Shown in pieces: positions 1 through 31,178 of a stretch of 32,000 nucleotides of DNA. A model generated the notes under the pieces. That model saw only the letters and a program-made list of their open reading frames with translations, was not told the origin of the DNA and did no database searches. Each line of letters starts with the position of its first letter. The stretch's first letter is position 1. Both the position numbers and the translations under genes were made by a program. Origin of the DNA: Haloquadratum walsbyi C23 (GTDB lineage: Archaea; Halobacteriota; Halobacteria; Halobacteriales; Haloferacaceae); the NCBI RefSeq assembly GCF_000237865.1, contig NC_017459.1, positions 1,020,001 through 1,052,000 of the forward strand, written 5' to 3'.

Positions 1-425
1 AAATAAATATACTGACTGCTGGCGGTAATTACGGCTGGCCAATTGCAGATGAAAGTTGCCAGTACGGGAGTGATGAACCGATTGGTGTCTCACACGGTGA
101 CCGAGAGGATGTAATCGCACCAGTGTATTCATGGCCATGTGGAAGTGGTGGATTTCCGCCAAGTGGTATGGCGTTTTATGATGCTGAAACAGCCAGCAAA
201 TCTCGTGGTATTGTGGGGTGGCAGGGAGATCTTTTCGTTGGTGGATTAGCCTCACAGTCACTCGCGCGGTTCCGTATTGACAATCAACAGATTGAATTAA
301 TTGATCATCTTCTCACGAATCGTGGATGGCGCATTCGTGCTGTTTCTGCCGCTCCGGATACCGGAGCAATATATGCAGTAATTGACTCAGATGATGCAGA
401 ACTGATTCGGCTTGTGTCTGCTTGA
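1..425 (+). CDS. PQQ-dependent sugar (glucose/sorbosone) dehydrogenase family protein, C-terminal part; the 5' end lies outside the window
   Basis: Frame 3 is open from the window edge to TGA at 423-425. The translation ..ILTAGGNYGWPIADESCQYGSDEPIG.. carries the GGNYGWP motif typical of soluble PQQ sugar dehydrogenases. The tracked ORF 123..425 is only its tail. Confidence 0.7.
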   Translation, partial: INILTAGGNYGWPIADESCQYGSDEPIGVSHGDREDVIAPVYSWPCGSGGFPPSGMAFYDAETASKSRGIVGWQGDLFVGGLASQSLARFRIDNQQIELIDHLLTNRGWRIRAVSAAPDTGAIYAVIDSDDAELIRLVSA

Positions 426-426
426 T

Positions 427-1050
427 ATCCTCCTCCACGTTTAGTGATTCGACAAACTTCTGGGTGAACTGATTCACTAAATCGATGCGAGAGAACTATT
501 CTGACTGATGTATGTCTAGTTAAGCACCCACTTCTTCTGTGAACTACTACACGCGGAGGAATTCCACGGCACCACACGCACCGCTGAGTTGGGAGTTTCA
601 GGTGCAGGTTCACAGGCTGCCGAACTCACACGCCGTGCGAACCAGTGTGCGGTCGAGGAACGGACAGCCTCTTTGAATTGGGAGTATCACAGCTTAAATC
701 ACGGTACTCCTATCTTCACCCGAAAACGCGCTCCTGTGTTAGTTTCCCCACAGGAGCGGTGGTCGGTGGTCAGTGGTCAGTGGTCGGTTTCACCAGACTC
801 AGAGTTACTCACGTCAACGCTCGCCCGGTGCTTATTCTTTGTTTCCCACATGGGGCACACTCTGCTTCCAGCGTGGGCGGACACTCATACTTGAACCGCC
901 ACCTTTCGGGCGCTTGGCTACAGTGGGATCATAGTCAGTGCGCCGACAGTTATATATACATCATGTTTCGACCGTTCGGGAACCCCCGGCTGCGACGGCG
1001 CGTGTCCACGGTCTGAGACTATGTGGTATTGTACCTGTATTAGCTATAAT
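427..1050 (+). repeat. Type B GC-rich non-coding element, copy B1. Its 5' hairpin arms (431-439 and 552-560) are separated by about 110 nt.
   Basis: Shares ordered boxes with 9815-10353, 12300-12660 and 30646-31178: ATCCTCCTCC start, ACGGCACC..TTGGGAGT, GGTACTCCTAT, CCACATGGGGCACAC..GCGTGGGCGGACACTCA..AACCGCCAC, and a 3' box GACGGCGCGTGTCCACG..TGTGGTATTGTACCTGT. It starts immediately after TTGAT (422-426). Confidence 0.75.
758..785. repeat. Heptamer tandem repeat (RGTGGTC) x4 inside copy B1
   Basis: ggtggtc ggtggtc agtggtc agtggtc, read directly. The homologous site in copy B2 (about 10060-10075) has fewer units. Confidence 0.8.
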
Positions 1051-9795: not shown

Positions 9796-9814
9796 TACAT
9801 GCAAGTTCTTTAAT

Positions 9815-10353
9815 ATCCTCCTCCGGCTGAAGCCGGGAGGAATCCTACGGCACCGCACCGCTTCGCTGGGTTGGGAGTGTCAGCTTTGGATTTGGGTTTG
9901 AGTTTGGGTTTGGGTTTGCAGACTCCCAATACCAAGCCAGTCCACCGTCGGAATCGGTGTGTGACCGGTCACTGGGCAATCTCCAGGGAGTGCCACATCT
10001 CAGCCCCCGGTACTCCTATGCTCAACCGAGGTGAAGTCCCTGTATTGTTTTTTCCACAGGGGCTTCGGTCAGTGGTCGGCACTCGGGTTCACCGGACTCG
10101 GAGTTACTTGTATTGGTGACGAGAGCCCGACGGTTGTTGTTTGATCCCCACATGGGGCACACCCTGTTTCCAGCGTGGGCGGACACTCACACTCAAACCG
10201 CCACTTTTCGGGCACTCGGCTACATCGGGGTCAGAGCCAATACGACAATACTAGTACATACGCCGTTGTCAAAAAGCGGTTGGAAACCACAGTATGACGG
10301 CGCGTATCCATGCCGTGAACAGGTGTGGTATTGCGCCTGTACCATCTATACTA
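9815..10353 (+). repeat. Type B GC-rich non-coding element, copy B2 (the most complete copy)
   Basis: 5' hairpin cctccggc-tgaa-gccgggagg followed by GGAATCC. All family boxes are present and it is preceded by TTAAT (9810-9814). About 100 nt (10147-10235) are nearly identical to 846-935. Confidence 0.8.
9885..9920. repeat. Hexamer microsatellite (TTTGRR) x6 inside copy B2
   Basis: tttgga tttggg tttgag tttggg tttggg tttgca. It is enclosed by an 8-bp helix, ttgggagt (9871-9878) with actcccaa (9922-9929). Confidence 0.85.
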
Positions 10354-12094: not shown

Positions 12095-12299
12095 ACCCTA
12101 GCGTCGCTGGACGCATATATTATAACTTATATGACCTGCATATATCAGTCTGTACGGGTATAAGTAACATAATGACGACAGCGAAAAAAATCCTGCTTTA
12201 GGCGTTAATTATGAGTTCAGGCGACCTTCGAGAGCAGAGAAACTAGTGCAACTTAATTAAGCCACAGTTGCTTCATGAGCGTCCGCGCCTATATTTGAC

Positions 12300-12660
12300 A
12301 TCCTCTCCGCCCTGAAGGGCGAAGATTCCCACGGCACCGCGCCGCTGGATTGGGATGTTCAAGGTTTGTAGCCGCCTCGATGACGGCTCCTGGCTGTGCC
12401 AGCCAGCCGTTACTCCTATTCCGGCATGGGATTCGGAGGTACTTCTTACTGCACCCTGAGTTCCACAACAGAAAGGGGTGCTTTCTGCATGGAATCGGGG
12501 AATCCCGATATTGTCCGATTAGTGGGGCGGGTAGACCGCCTCGGTTATGTATCGATACGGCATCTCGTCAGTTAACCCATCCGTTCGACACGTCGAACGT
12601 GGTTCACGCAGGGGTTGTCGGATTCATCCCCGCCGTGTGGTGCTCCTGAAAACTTATTGA
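12300..12660 (+). repeat. Type B element, short rearranged variant (copy B3)
   Basis: Preceded by TTGAC (12295-12299). 5' hairpin tctccgccc-tgaa-gggcgaaga followed by GATTCC, then CACGGCACCGC..GGATTGGGATG, GTTACTCCTAT, and a 3' end GTGTGGTGCTCCTGAAAAC. It lacks the CCACATGGGGCACAC block. Confidence 0.6.
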
Positions 12661-13400
12661 GGAATTCAATCCAAAATCTTGTTATAGAGTAGCTGCTGAT
12701 ACCATTGCGTAGGACCTGTGATTCAAAATGTTTCACGGAGTACTAAACGGCGGGGCTTTCTCCTCGCACCGCCGTAAGCACGGGTCTTACCTGTGGAACT
12801 CTCGCTGTGTTGTTCAGAATAAATCTGTATTGTGACGTCTATTCTGCTTAATTTTGCATGTGATCAGCTTGCTCACTCAAAACGGATTAGCAATTAACGG
12901 GCACTTACCCTGTCCTCAAGCAATAAACTAACTGGAAGCGGGTGGCAGAGGCAGTCCGCTGAGAAGTACTTACTCGACCTGAAATGGATTTCGACTCTTG
13001 AGTTTTCAACGTTCGGCAATCACTGACCACATATCACGGCGACACAGTTCCTGATAGTCTCATGTTCCGGTTTGACAATTTTATATAGCGTTATTTGATT
13101 TATATATTGAATTTGATCATCAACTATCCCTCCAACTATATCGAATCTGTCTGGAGGTGATAACTTTAGTACCTAAGAGGCGCTAAGTCTCTGTCCTCAA
13201 GGGAAGAGCGAAGCGAGTGAGTAGGGTGGGAATACAGCGCCGTCATCACGCTATCATACAGTTCAACCAGTATATGTACTATCTTGTGTGCTTTCTGTGT
13301 TCCACACGATGCTCGCCACATTTTCAACAGTGTTCGAGTGCGACACAAAACACGTACTGATGGGTATGGTGGAGTGGCTATCCATGAGTGGGACACTTCG

Positions 13401-27899: not shown

Positions 27900-29409
27900 C
27901 TGTCGCGTTCTAAGTTCATAAAGCCCGGCGAAATTCTCTCCTAACGAACTGCTGGGTAAGAATCGTATGGGAGTTCACTCATCGAACAGTTGTCGGTGAA
28001 ATCCGTGTTGAGCCAAGAGAAGTAGCAGTTCAGGGAAAGAAATGATCAATGATCGCGGCACAGGCGACAGCCGTCGCTGGTGGGTGACGGCTGTCGCCGG
28101 GAAGTGAAGATTGATTAGCCGAATGAATCTAGCGTCTCATTCCAGAAGGTTCGAACTTTCTGGATAGCACGCGCCACGCCACCCCTGACTGGGTGGCGTT
28201 GGCGAAACCATACGACCAGCATATATCCAATCAATGCACAGAACAGCTCGAATAACACGCCGTTCAGCGATTTCGAGTGAAAGTTCTCGATGTTGAGGTA
28301 CTGTTTCCACTCTCGGAAGAGGATCTCAATTACTGTCCGTAGTGTGTATATGTTGATCACGTCGATTGGATCGTACTCTGACGACGCCAGCGTCGTCAGG
28401 TACTCAATCTCTTCTCCATCGGGTGTTTCCAGCACAATCCTGCGGAACTCTTCACCAGTCTCAGCTAATTCAATTCGTTCATCACGAACCCGTCGCGTTG
28501 ATTCCTCATCTGAGTGAGTCGGCTGAGCGGCGTTGTTCCCTGAGACGGTGACCTCGAACTCTTCGAGTGTCTCAATGAGTTCAAATCGAGCGTCTGAGTG
28601 CATCAGTGTGACAAAATCATTGTCACTATGCTTGATCTCACAGAACCGTAGATATCGCGTGTATGCGCGGTCAAAGACCCAGATTACCGAGTCGAGGTCT
28701 GCAAAGACCTCGACATCTTCCTTGAGGAGATCGAACTGCGGGCTTTCGTGGGTGTCGCCCTCTGTAACAGTAGCGTCGAGTGGATGTTTATTTTCTCCAT
28801 CCACACGTGCTGCGCAGTGAAGTTCGAGACCACCATCGTCTGTGTCGATCTTGTAGACCTTGTCGTCGTCTCCGACGAACTCGTCTGAGACGACAACAGA
28901 GCGCGTAAGTTCGAGGTTTGTGGCATCAACAGCGACGACATCTCGTGTCATCCACTGCAGTCGTTTTCGTTGAACTCCACGTTGATGATACAACTGTGGT
29001 GTGTGCAGTACTTCGAAGAGGAGCTGAACGACCGCGCAGTAGTCGCGGTCGTTCGTGAGTTCTGAAAACCGTGATTTAGGCATGTGTTCGAGTGAGTCGT
29101 CGACAATGGTCTTATCCTCAAGTTCAGCGAGTGAGCTGGAGGGGTCAAGACCCTCACGAACAGCCGTCTTGACGTGGTTCGTGAAGTCGTGTTTGTCGGA
29201 ATGGAGCCCAATCTTGAATTCATCGGCAATCGACTCGCTGTCGACTTCGTCGAGCAGCGAGTACATTTCGTCAGCGACGAGATCAGTAGAATTGATATTA
29301 GAGGCGTCCGTTACGTCTTCTGACGGCCTGTTTGGTGAATCAAATTGCACAGACATTACGGGCCGTCACTAACGGCTCACGCCGTTTTTATATACTCAGA
29401 ACGCGACAG
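27900..29409 (-). mobile_element. Intact IS4-family insertion sequence (1510 bp) with a 9-bp target site duplication
   Basis: Terminal inverted repeats CTGTCGCGTTCTAAGT (27900-27915) and the reverse complement of 29394-29409 (CTGTCGCGTTCTGAGT). Direct repeat TACGGTGAC at 27891-27899 and 29410-29418. Confidence 0.85.
28115..29356 (-). CDS. IS4-family DDE transposase
   Basis: 413 aa with D regions VVAVDATNL and VIWVFDRAY, and the IS4 signature Y(2)R(3)E(6)K in YTLRTVIEILFREWK. Confidence 0.85.
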   Translation of the reverse strand: MSVQFDSPNRPSEDVTDASNINSTDLVADEMYSLLDEVDSESIADEFKIGLHSDKHDFTNHVKTAVREGLDPSSSLAELEDKTIVDDSLEHMPKSRFSELTNDRDYCAVVQLLFEVLHTPQLYHQRGVQRKRLQWMTRDVVAVDATNLELTRSVVVSDEFVGDDDKVYKIDTDDGGLELHCAARVDGENKHPLDATVTEGDTHESPQFDLLKEDVEVFADLDSVIWVFDRAYTRYLRFCEIKHSDNDFVTLMHSDARFELIETLEEFEVTVSGNNAAQPTHSDEESTRRVRDERIELAETGEEFRRIVLETPDGEEIEYLTTLASSEYDPIDVINIYTLRTVIEILFREWKQYLNIENFHSKSLNGVLFELFCALIGYMLVVWFRQRHPVRGGVARAIQKVRTFWNETLDSFG

Positions 29410-29718
29410 TACGGTGACAACGACCAGACACAACCCATCAAAGTATGGAAATGAAGATCTCATTTCCTTCGCTGGTCGTTTGACAGTTTGGAAATGTGGC
29501 CCCTCTCAAAATCCGCTACTATGGTGGTGCGACGGGGGTTTCAACGGGCGGAGTGAAGCCGCCGACCTCCACGGACTCCTCGCGGAGTTCGGGTGTTAAT
29601 TCCAGCCGACCCCTCACGGGGAAGGTCGGAGGGAATTAAATTCGCCTGCGGGTGCTGTGCAGACCCCAAACGGTGAAGCCTCGGGGCTTGACCCCGAGGT
29701 ACTTCACCTGGATAACCC
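29410..29718 (+). repeat. Type A element copy A2, right part including the conserved 3' module
   Basis: TTCGGGTGTTA, stem-loop ccgacc-cccctcacgggg-aa-ggtcgg, GGAATTAAATTCGCC, GAAGCC plus hairpin (29679-29699), TACTTCACCTGGATAAC. Collinear with 6700-6855. Confidence 0.7.
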
Positions 29719-30638: not shown

Positions 30639-30645
30639 TCTTGGC

Positions 30646-31178
30646 ATCCTTCTCCGCGTGAGTGCGAAGGAATCCCGGAGCGTGAGTGATGGAGATCGCA
30701 GGGTTGCAGTCTCATCAGGTATCCAGATGGTGAGAATCCGTCCGGACTTCTGGACCGTGGCGAGTGGGGATGGACTGCTGGGAGTGCCACATCTCAGCTC
30801 TCGATACTCCTCTCCTCAATCATATCTACACTCCCGAAGTTGTTTGTGCCTTTGGAGGGGGCTGGCAGACTTCGACGGACTTGGGTTTACATTTTGATAT
30901 TTAGAGTAGTCAAGCACAGCATCGATTCAGTATCAGAACCGACCGTTCATATGACTGGCTCCGATTATCGTCCCATTGCTCGGAGCGGACAGAACTTCAC
31001 CGTCGGACGGGGTGGGAATCGCTCTACTCTCGCCTGATTCCTACTTTGTCAATATGTTGCCTGTCTACTCCATAGCACTCAAATCTCAGTTTAGCTGCAT
31101 CACGTGGATAGGTTCCCACGTGACGGCGCATATCCACGACTCGAAGACCGTGGTATTGTGCCTGTCCATCATATAATA
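30646..31178 (+). repeat. Type B GC-rich non-coding element, copy B4
   Basis: Begins 8 nt after the folA stop and is preceded by TTGGC (30641-30645). 5' hairpin ccttc-tc-cgc-gtgagt-gcg-gaagg followed by GAATCC. Contains GGGAGTGCCACATCTCAGC..GATACTCCTC (nearly identical to 9986-10018) and a 3' box GACGGCGCATATCCACG..CGTGGTATTGTGCCTGT. Confidence 0.7.

Follow-up and report, generated by a model that had tools for sequence, protein, structure and literature searches.

Four gene-less elements in the window

We analysed a 32,000-nucleotide (nt) stretch of the Haloquadratum walsbyi C23 genome (contig NC_017459.1, positions 1,020,001 to 1,052,000 of the forward strand), referred to here as the window. 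Three related elements in it, the type B copies B1, B2 and B4, had been proposed in an initial annotation to encode a plus-strand structured RNA, mainly because of two short helices (helix 1 and helix 2) seen in and around positions 583-720 of B1. The type B copies are gene-less, tnpB-less palindrome-associated transposable elements (PATEs), members of a family published in 2011, and the window holds a fourth PATE, B3. The features on which the analysis turns are the following, where LE and RE denote the left and right ends of an element.

422-1044, minus strand: B1, a PATE and tnpB-less derivative of the IS200/IS605 insertion sequences (ISs), with the RE ending at 422 and the LE starting at 1044; the ends match the termini of full-length IS1341-type elements and of HqIRS56.
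1045-1049, minus strand: TTATA, the target or target-adjacent motif (TAM) 5' of the B1 LE, present at this position at 104 of 113 loci and given in Table S9 of PMC3119063.
583-720, minus strand: the flagged stretch, part of a scaffold resembling an omega-RNA or sense-overlapping transcript RNA (sotRNA), as judged by covariance-model alignment to the PATE model, homology to tnpB 3' ends and the RF02656 structure.
801-805, minus strand: 5' arm of helix P1 of B1, ACUCU, whose partner is GGAGU at 706-710 (four Watson-Crick pairs plus one U.G).
9810-10346, minus strand: B2, a PATE of B1's subfamily, with the RE ending at 9810 and the LE starting at 10346; flank GTATA at 10347-10351.
12295-12773, minus strand: B3, the fourth PATE, from a TTAC-targeting family, with TTAC at 12774-12777 (covariance model R1, 69.4 bits, E=6e-21; RF02656, 69 bits, E=1.2e-17).
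30641-31171, minus strand: B4, a degenerate member of the major PATE family of approximately 520 nt, with TTATA at 31172-31176 (covariance model R1, 71.8 bits, E=1e-21).

Our reading, to which we assign a probability of roughly 0.85, is that the type B copies are HqIRS56-type PATEs, that is, non-autonomous derivatives of an IS1341-type (tnpB-only) IS200/IS605 insertion sequence lying in minus orientation, and that their scaffold is that of a TnpB omega-RNA/sotRNA on the minus strand.

The type B copies share both ends with tnpB-carrying insertion sequences

We scanned one genome per prokaryotic species with the conserved segment that the initial annotation had called the "3' box" (GACGGCGCNTNTCCA...GTGGTATTG) and found the pattern at more than 120 loci, nearly all in Halobacteria. 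At 27 of these loci the box is followed by a full-length TnpB (Pfam OrfB_IS605 with a Cas12f1-like TNB), always on the opposite strand and starting approximately 80-100 nt from the box, and the "3' box" is therefore the LE of an IS1341-type IS200/IS605 element. The 27 elements have the LE box and the RE in common, and one of them (L024) comes from H. walsbyi J07HQW2. In tnpB orientation the full-length elements finish in ...GGGATTCCTCCGCG-UUCA-CGCGGAGGAGGATGTCAA, which is the reverse complement of the "5' hairpin" plus "TTGAY" described for B1, B2 and B4; full-length relatives and reverse-complemented copies alike end in the RE hairpin followed by GATGTCAA. The "3' box" and the "5' hairpin" are thus the LE, flanked by TTATA, and the RE hairpin, respectively.

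The same ends bound tnpB-less elements of approximately 520 nt at 34 more loci in many genera, with TTATA outside the LE, ...GATGTCAA at the other boundary and unrelated flanks; since the flanks differ among these loci in other genomes, the family has moved. An LE hairpin (CCACGG..CCGTGG with an outer GGCGC/GCGCC stem) and an RE hairpin (CCTCCGCG-loop-CGCGGAGG) are found in B1, B2, B4 and the 34 PATEs. B1 and B4 are flanked by TTATA and B2 by GTATA. These comparisons establish the homology of the elements, their orientation and their boundaries.

The published record agrees with this assignment. Table S9 of Dyall-Smith et al. 2011 (PLoS One 6:e20968; PMC3119063) lists HqIRS56 as 532-574 bp, with TTATA + TGCTGAGCAGGCGCAATACCACG... 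and ...GGGATTCCTCCGCGTGAACCCGGAGGAGGATGTCAA as its ends and TTATA as the targeting sequence, and relates it to ISHwa21; the termini and the target agree with the window copies. Moreover, the type B copies resemble HqIRS56 PATEs in organism, in length class, in having neither an open reading frame (ORF) nor inverted terminal repeats, and in the imperfect palindrome that lies just inside each end. The 5' end (TTATA + ...CAGGCGCAATACCACG...CGTGGATACGCGCCGTCA) and the 3' end (...GGGATTCCTCCGCG-loop-CGGAGGAGGATGTCAA) are common to both, and in both the near-terminal palindromes are targeted by SMR-A repeats of approximately 110 bp. They differ in that B1 and B2 form a divergent ("heterogeneous") subfamily with a shorter middle part, in that all three copies carry additional lesions, and in that the 2011 study handled the elements as DNA repeats and did not discuss an RNA. 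The termini of B3 nearly match one further PATE in the same table. For the flagged region itself there is accordingly nothing new: the elements were catalogued in 2011 as HqIRS PATEs, the RNA module belongs to the sotRNA/omega-RNA family described between 2015 and 2021, gene-less omega-RNA PATEs have been noted since 2015 and 2023, and the "new large non-coding RNA class" that had been offered as one possibility is not needed.

Each copy retains a series of parts: an LE with its TnpA-recognised hairpin beside the target motif TTATA; the region that in full-length elements contains the tnpB promoter; a structured segment specific to PATEs; the omega-RNA/sotRNA scaffold, which is the parent's last 200 nt or so; and the RE hairpin with the end ...GGAGGAGGATRTCAA. 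When two TnpBs were compared with the window and the PATEs by tblastn, no significant protein remnant was found in the elements; only a borderline similarity (E~0.1) placed TnpB residues ~366-422 on the 3' part of a PATE. A small protein encoded in the PATE interior was considered and rejected, as no open frame is conserved across 24 PATEs. Scans of viral contigs with two patterns gave 0 matches and 5 unrelated matches.

The left part of each copy is homologous to the omega-RNA/sotRNA region of tnpB

Homology to the final ~200 nt of the full-length elements extends over the left ~250-380 nt of B1, B2 and B4, read on the minus strand. These final ~200 nt, known as the sotRNA or omega-RNA, comprise the codons of the TnpB C-terminus (...GDRSTGWLAQP...) and the RE. 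The scaffold region abuts the RE, and the strand set by the LE-to-RE polarity is the minus strand of the window. In the tnpB-carrying relatives this region is recognised by the Rfam model RF02656 (sot0042) on the tnpB-sense strand, with 141 bits for L033 and 118 bits for the H. walsbyi J07HQW2 element, both above the gathering score of 88 bits; a typical PATE (L005) is matched at E=3.5e-11. The curated RF02656 structure and our own alignments agree on helix P1, in which ACUCC pairs with GGAGU around a variable hairpin, and on helix P2, GGCNN-NUUGGCA-NNGCC.

A covariance model (R1) built only from 23 PATEs of other genomes found all four window copies on the minus strand, with E=1e-21 for B4, 6e-21 for B3, 2.5e-13 for B2 and 1e-4 for B1, and gave nothing below E~0.05 on the plus strand of the window. 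B1 was matched at 540-800 and 525-822, and B2 at 9811-10106 (E=1.9e-18) and 9816-10081 (E=2.5e-13). Read on this strand, the flagged stretch 583-720 contains the P1 3' arm GGAGU (706-710), a degenerate P2, the P3 region and the P4 5' arm ACUCCCA (590-596). B2 shows P1 as ACUCC (10100-10104) with GGAGU (10013-10017) and P2 as GGGGG (10005-10009) with CUCCC (9987-9991). P1 and P2 are canonical in B3, which of all the window copies matches RF02656 best. The Rfam search that had been suggested earlier returns no window match at gathering thresholds; B3 is matched on the minus strand at the E value listed above.

TnpB omega-RNA, reportedly as described in Karvelis 2021 and Altae-Tran 2021, is among the nearest known comparisons. 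The type B module occupies the same position as the TnpB omega-RNA/sotRNA (RF02656; PMC4615843), namely the last ~175-230 nt up to the RE, has the same orientation relative to LE and RE, and carries the same helices P1 (ACUCC/GGAGU), P2, P4 and RE hairpin with a UUCA-type tetraloop. It differs from haloarchaeal omega-RNA in that no tnpB ORF overlaps it and the P1 insert is expanded. With respect to RF02656, B1, B2 and B4 fall below any threshold, and their P2 is altered (CUCCC arm, 13-nt loop) or, in B1, lost. Since the window copies lie below the RF02656 threshold we do not file them as members, although the module descends from the RF02656 sotRNA/omega-RNA and would work like it; use of a type B RNA by TnpB is a candidate role.

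Helix 1 is a by-product of P1 and P2

The two helices of the initial annotation were checked against the sequence. For helix 1, GGAGTATC (681-688) does pair with GGTACTCC (703-710) across a 14-nt loop in B1, and GGAGTGCC (30781-30788) with GATACTCC (30803-30810) in B4 with one C.A mismatch; in B2 the pairing is real, with arms at 9988-9995 and 10010-10017, the coordinates given initially being too low by one. For helix 2, TTGGGAGT (9871-9878) pairs with ACTCCCAA (9922-9929) in B2, and TGGGAGTT (590-597) with AACTCACA (623-630) at 7 of 8 positions in B1. Stems of this size in a single sequence are not above chance: the 138 nt of 583-720 hold two 8-bp stems, compared with 0.59 +/- 1.0 in dinucleotide shuffles, and 15.5% of the shuffles hold at least two. 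Folds of the whole B1 and B2 elements as single sequences gave z-scores of -1.3 to -2.9 over the two strands; neither strand does clearly better than its shuffles, and the folds did not discriminate. The B2 helix 2 stem encloses a (TTTGGG)5.7 microsatellite, and only 5 of the 8 Watson-Crick pairs of helix 2 persist in L163, the nearest relative of B1 that is not an ortholog.

Helix 1 had been said to be readable only on the plus strand. However, the same nucleotides form P1 (ACUCC/GGAGU) and P2 (GGGGG/CUCCC) on the minus strand, where both are conserved and covary. In the Haloquadratum lineage the P2 3' arm (CUCCC) carries the same 5-mer as the P1 5' arm (ACUCC); GGAGU is therefore complementary to both, and helix 1 arises. 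On the minus strand its two sides are the P1 3' arm, GGAGUACC, and a segment made up of the last part of the P2 loop and the P2 3' arm, GGCACUCC; such a pairing is possible in one Haloquadratum lineage only. Two real helices with a 5-mer in common thus give rise to helix 1 as a by-product. The complementary segments exist as alternative pairings of minus-strand scaffold motifs and are no evidence for a plus-strand RNA.

The comparison of P1 and P2 with helix 1 covered about 70 related copies. The full scaffold structure is 92% paired in the PATE alignment, where 22 pairs show double-sided changes; none of 500 shuffles reaches 22, and slid controls give 3-11. A metagenome scan in which the variable positions of helix 1 were left free yielded 35 more Haloquadratum-lineage copies. 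Among 46 distinct copies of this lineage, aligned to the covariance model in a way that leans towards the model's structure, P1 and P2 are 94.6% paired and 6 of 10 pairs are compensatory, a level reached by 0 of 500 shuffles; in the same alignment helix 1 has 0 compensatory pairs and a covariation score below that of shuffles. In one informative copy (L144), GGAGU, the arm common to P1 and helix 1, carries a G-to-A change whose compensation lies in the P1 partner (ACUUC) and not in the helix 1 partner. Moreover, P1 and P2, but not helix 1, are retained in B3 and in every copy from another genus. On the sense strand P1, P2, the P1 insert, P4 and the RE hairpin covary, and helix 1 does not. For helix 1, the lack of covariation in a larger alignment and its absence from other copies are outcomes that the initial annotation had itself named as refuting its proposal. 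A hand-built P3a/b/c with a GAAA tetraloop, 75-84% paired, is moderately supported; it replaces the P3 predicted by RNAalifold, as well as RNAalifold's long-range pairs (columns 111-116 with 552-557 of alignment A2), which were discarded. The model was not built on a MAFFT alignment that combined PATEs with full-length ISs (A4), in which the P1 5' arm was misplaced.

The RNA strand and the alternatives to it

We place the RNA on the minus strand, a probable assignment that follows from the LE-to-tnpB-to-RE polarity, RF02656, the published transcripts of relatives and a TATA-like box, GTTTAAGTGAC, which lies at the position of the tnpB promoter and is kept in most PATEs. Among those transcripts, sotRNAs overlap the 3' ends of tnpB genes in the sense direction, and Halobacterium salinarum expresses an RNA derived from a PATE, which has a growth phenotype (Gomes-Filho et al. 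2015; PMC4615843); sotRNAs have been equated with omega-RNAs (PMC12558985).

The opposite strand was the initial proposal: a plus-strand RNA of 350-550 nt with helices 1 and 2 as its stems, its guide beyond the "3' box" and TTGAY as the TAM. Its wobble argument holds in B1 and B2, where helix 1 is a clean 8-bp plus-strand stem with one G.U in each that becomes one A.C on the minus strand, and fails in B4, where the two strands are equivalent. The fold of B2 is also more pronounced on the plus strand (z=-2.9, versus -1.3 on the minus strand), whereas B1 folds slightly better on the minus strand. Counted over helix 1 there are 38 G.U cells on the plus strand and 3 on the minus, but 35 of these 38 stem from one fixed position. 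In contrast, P1 and P2 give 49 G.U cells on the minus strand and 7 on the plus, and the whole scaffold structure 76 and 31, so that wobble counts overall do not favour the plus strand. Wobble pairs are a weak guide, and we do not rest the strand call on them; arguments from wobble in three related copies proved unreliable. Against a plus-strand RNA there are, besides the lack of compensatory change in helix 1 and the L144 substitution, the absence of helix 1 from B3 and from 23 PATEs and ~24 full-length ISs of other genera, in which the same bases are the covarying P1 and P2, and the location of tnpB, RF02656 and the published sotRNA and PATE transcripts on the other strand. Furthermore, TTGAY is the complement of the RE terminal (R)TCAA, and the real flanking motif and TAM is TTATA beside the LE; the guide would be read from the flank beyond the "5' hairpin" (left of 422, 9810 and 30641) in the minus-strand direction. 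We therefore give the plus-strand proposal next to no weight. What survives of it is the idea of an orphan omega-RNA, in that the copies are mobile-element derivatives with an omega-RNA-like scaffold and no adjacent tnpB, with strand, guide side and TAM all reversed; a transcript of element length (~400-450 nt) is likewise plausible. The value of the present analysis for the flagged region is in this sense corrective, since it fixes the polarity.

The internal helices might also act not in an RNA but as single-stranded DNA in a transposition intermediate bound by TnpA. Transposition of IS200/IS605 elements proceeds by way of single-stranded DNA, and it is in DNA form that their LE and RE hairpins are recognised by TnpA (PMC3119063); these hairpins covary, and the balance of G.U and A.C in strand-symmetric pairs fits DNA as well as RNA. 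However, the known need of TnpA is for the subterminal hairpins only, the internal helices coincide with RF02656 and with experimentally detected sotRNAs, and G.U exceeds A.C on the sense strand of the scaffold by 76:31, which makes a role confined to DNA very improbable.

A number of points weigh against a minus-strand omega-RNA module in these copies. At gathering thresholds Rfam gives no match in the whole window, every window copy lying below the RF02656 cut-off, and RF02656 finds nothing on B2 or B4 even at E<=10; when these two were searched by E-value, all that Rfam returned was at chance level. Neither tnpB nor tnpA is present in the window, and the tnpB and tnpA genes of H. walsbyi are reported to be pseudogenes for the most part (PMC3119063). 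A wobble test on pairs predicted on both strands, tried as a means of deciding the strand, was balanced (24 G.U against 25 A.C) and therefore uninformative; RNAalifold energies are near-equal between the strands (-114.5 versus -107.6). Helix 1 is 89% paired on the plus strand and 77% on the minus among the 46 copies, and both substitutions that separate helix 2 of B1 from that of L163 are wobble-tolerant only on the plus strand. The strand on which the window copies would be expressed is predicted from homology and the literature. Finally, the copies bear disruptive features, namely an SMR-A-type insertion, a microsatellite, a weakened P1 and a lost TATA-like box.

The type B copies look partly decayed

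Two of these disruptive features are additions to the sequence:

442-549, no strand assigned: a 108-nt SMR-A-type insertion in the tetraloop of the B1 RE hairpin, between TG and AA; the hairpin is intact in L163 and L140.
9885-9918, no strand assigned: the (TTTGGG)5.7 microsatellite in the B2 scaffold, which is the loop of helix 2 as drawn initially.

B1 keeps P1 with one U.G, has lost P2 and has its RE hairpin split by the insertion; uninterrupted, as in L163 and L140, this hairpin reads CCTCCGCG-TGAA-CGCAGAGG. B2 keeps P1, P2 (with one G.U) and the RE hairpin, and has a variant terminus, ATATTAA. At the site of its microsatellite the full-length relatives have GGGAGTCTGCAAACCC once. In B4, which has no TATA-like box left, P1 retains 2 of 4 pairs, P2 contains one A.C, the LE and RE stems contain mismatches and the RE hairpin is imperfect; B4 can nonetheless be aligned with 23 PATEs of other genera. 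A copy from Halovenus (L083) is 72% identical to B2 over 529 nt. B1, B2 and B4 occupy the same sites in all related contigs retrieved from strains and metagenomes, with no empty site seen: an ortholog of B1 lies in syntenic metagenome contigs, and B4 is kept in every related contig retrieved, including H. walsbyi HBSQ001, where DHFR is identical to that of the window and the DNA 97.5-99.4% identical.

The insertion in B1 has the features described for SMR-A: a length of ~110 bp, inverted termini (TAGTAGTTCACA... and ...TGTCGAATCACTA), no target duplication and a position in a near-terminal palindrome. B3 carries a comparable insertion at ~12638-12745, in the loop of its LE hairpin between TT and CA. 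Like SMR-A of H. walsbyi (HqIRS42/43/55), both inserts have inverted termini and lie inside near-terminal palindromes, and size, termini and insertion site would together assign them to SMR-A. Such behaviour in PATE palindromes has been described, and insertion has been proposed as an inactivating mechanism (PMC3119063). Each insert splits the 4-nt loop of a TnpA-type hairpin exactly at the loop's midpoint, which suggests a very precise, structure-directed insertion site.

B1, B2 and B4 all look partly decayed, and we therefore rate a current RNA function of these three copies at about one in three. A serious rival is that they are dead, neither mobilised nor used as RNA, with complementarity that is inherited or accidental and now drifting. 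The split RE hairpin of B1 and the proposed inactivating effect of SMR-A, the microsatellite and variant terminus of B2, the loss in B4 of the TATA-like box, of half of P1 and of some LE and RE pairing, the failure of RF02656 on B2 and B4, and the constancy of the sites in related strains and metagenomes, which gives no sign of recent movement, all fit this explanation. On the other hand, the covarying PATE-specific helices (the P1 insert with its GGCAAAAACAAC loop, and the 5' domain) show that selection acted on the structure after the origin of the PATE family, P1 and P2 continue to show compensatory changes among copies of the Haloquadratum lineage, and the PATE-derived RNA of Halobacterium is expressed and has a growth phenotype (PMC4615843). 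We would give even odds to the copies being fossils.

A proposed route for an intact element

For an intact element of this family, the HqIRS56-type reading would imply the following steps, the TnpB and IS200/IS605 parts of which are modelled on what Karvelis 2021, Altae-Tran 2021 and the work of Ton-Hoang and Barabas on IS608 are said to have established, together with PMC10055086. TnpA supplied in trans would excise the element as single-stranded DNA (top strand) and insert it 3' of TTATA. Transcription in the tnpB sense, on the minus strand of the window, would run through the RE into the flank, of which the ~16-20 nt 3' of the RE would become the omega-RNA guide. Scaffold and flank-derived guide could then load a TnpB supplied in trans, and the complex would cut empty sites consisting of TTATA plus the guide sequence, so that the element would be retained. 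The predicted guide starts, read on the minus strand, are these:

B1, minus strand, predicted guide start: 5'-GCAGACACAAGCCGAAUCAG
B2, minus strand, predicted guide start: AGAACUUGCAUGUAUUAAAU
B4, minus strand, predicted guide start: GAUUAUACGCUUUGACGGGU

According to the preprint of Meers et al. 2023 (PMC10055086), trans-acting omega-RNAs are a frequent product of PATEs. Two further comparisons are VNG_R0052 of Halobacterium salinarum and the omega-RNA PATEs of Geobacillus stearothermophilus. As here, these are IS200/IS605 derivatives without genes in which LE, RE and the RNA module persist, and a dependence on TnpA and TnpB in trans is proposed for them (PMC4615843; PMC10055086), as it is for type B. 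They differ from type B in host and in sequence family, and VNG_R0052 is described as a fused LE and RE, whereas the type B copies keep ~500 nt including a PATE-specific structured 5' domain.

A wider PATE family with covarying domains of its own

The flagged finding itself adds little, and such modest interest as remains lies in the wider family. The PATEs of ~520 nt (34 loci, L002-L113) occur in at least 15 haloarchaeal genera at near-constant length. Their 5' domain (GGAATCGGTCGGAACGGAGCGGATTCCGAACCGTCC...GGCGGCCTGTCCGCC...; 30904-31090 in B4) forms covarying hairpins with 9 double-sided pairs, a number that 0 of 500 shuffles reach, and the PATE-specific P1 insert covaries as well; Rfam covers neither the 5' domain nor the P1 insert. 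The covariation of these domains across genera suggests a guide-only element under selection. It is conceivable, if on balance unlikely, that the family, with B4 as a decayed member and B1 and B2 as a shortened subfamily, is a guide-only selfish element rather than just debris, carrying an enlarged omega-RNA whose covarying PATE-specific modules, a 5' domain of ~170 nt and an expanded P1 insert whose GGCAAAAACAAC loop is conserved, occur in neither Rfam nor the parent IS. If so, the PATE RNA could hijack a trans-acting TnpB for the element's own homing, or modulate TnpA/TnpB activity.

Several further observations concern PATEs and the LE pattern. Three copies from different genera (L003, L032 and L065) have a common insertion of ~56 nt directly after the P2 hairpin (CGTCCTCAGAAATC..TTCTCGTGAA), and L003 and L065 have another in common ahead of P4; both may represent small mobile inserts of a different kind. 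Tandem arrays occur inside PATEs, as (CGGTGGT)4.6 at 757-788 in B1 and as the array at 9885-9918 in B2, where relatives have a single unit. The sole non-haloarchaeal match to the LE pattern (L030, in a contig of a Sphingomonas metagenome-assembled genome) has an atypical span of 42 nt and is probably due to chance or contamination.

Other observations in the window

Insertion of IS200/IS605 elements is biased towards the lagging-strand template. All four PATEs in the 32 kb share the minus orientation, which would fit such a bias, although four copies are too few for the point to carry weight. The terminal TTGA of B1 holds the TGA stop codon (423-425) of a glucose/sorbosone-dehydrogenase-like ORF at 123-425, whose stop is thus supplied by the B1 right end. 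Elsewhere in the window, a DDE transposase gene (Pfam DDE_Tnp_1, 413 aa; ORF 28115-29356, minus strand) lies in a ~1.5-kb stretch at ~27900-29410 that the syntenic region of H. walsbyi HBSQ001 lacks, and represents a strain-specific IS insertion.

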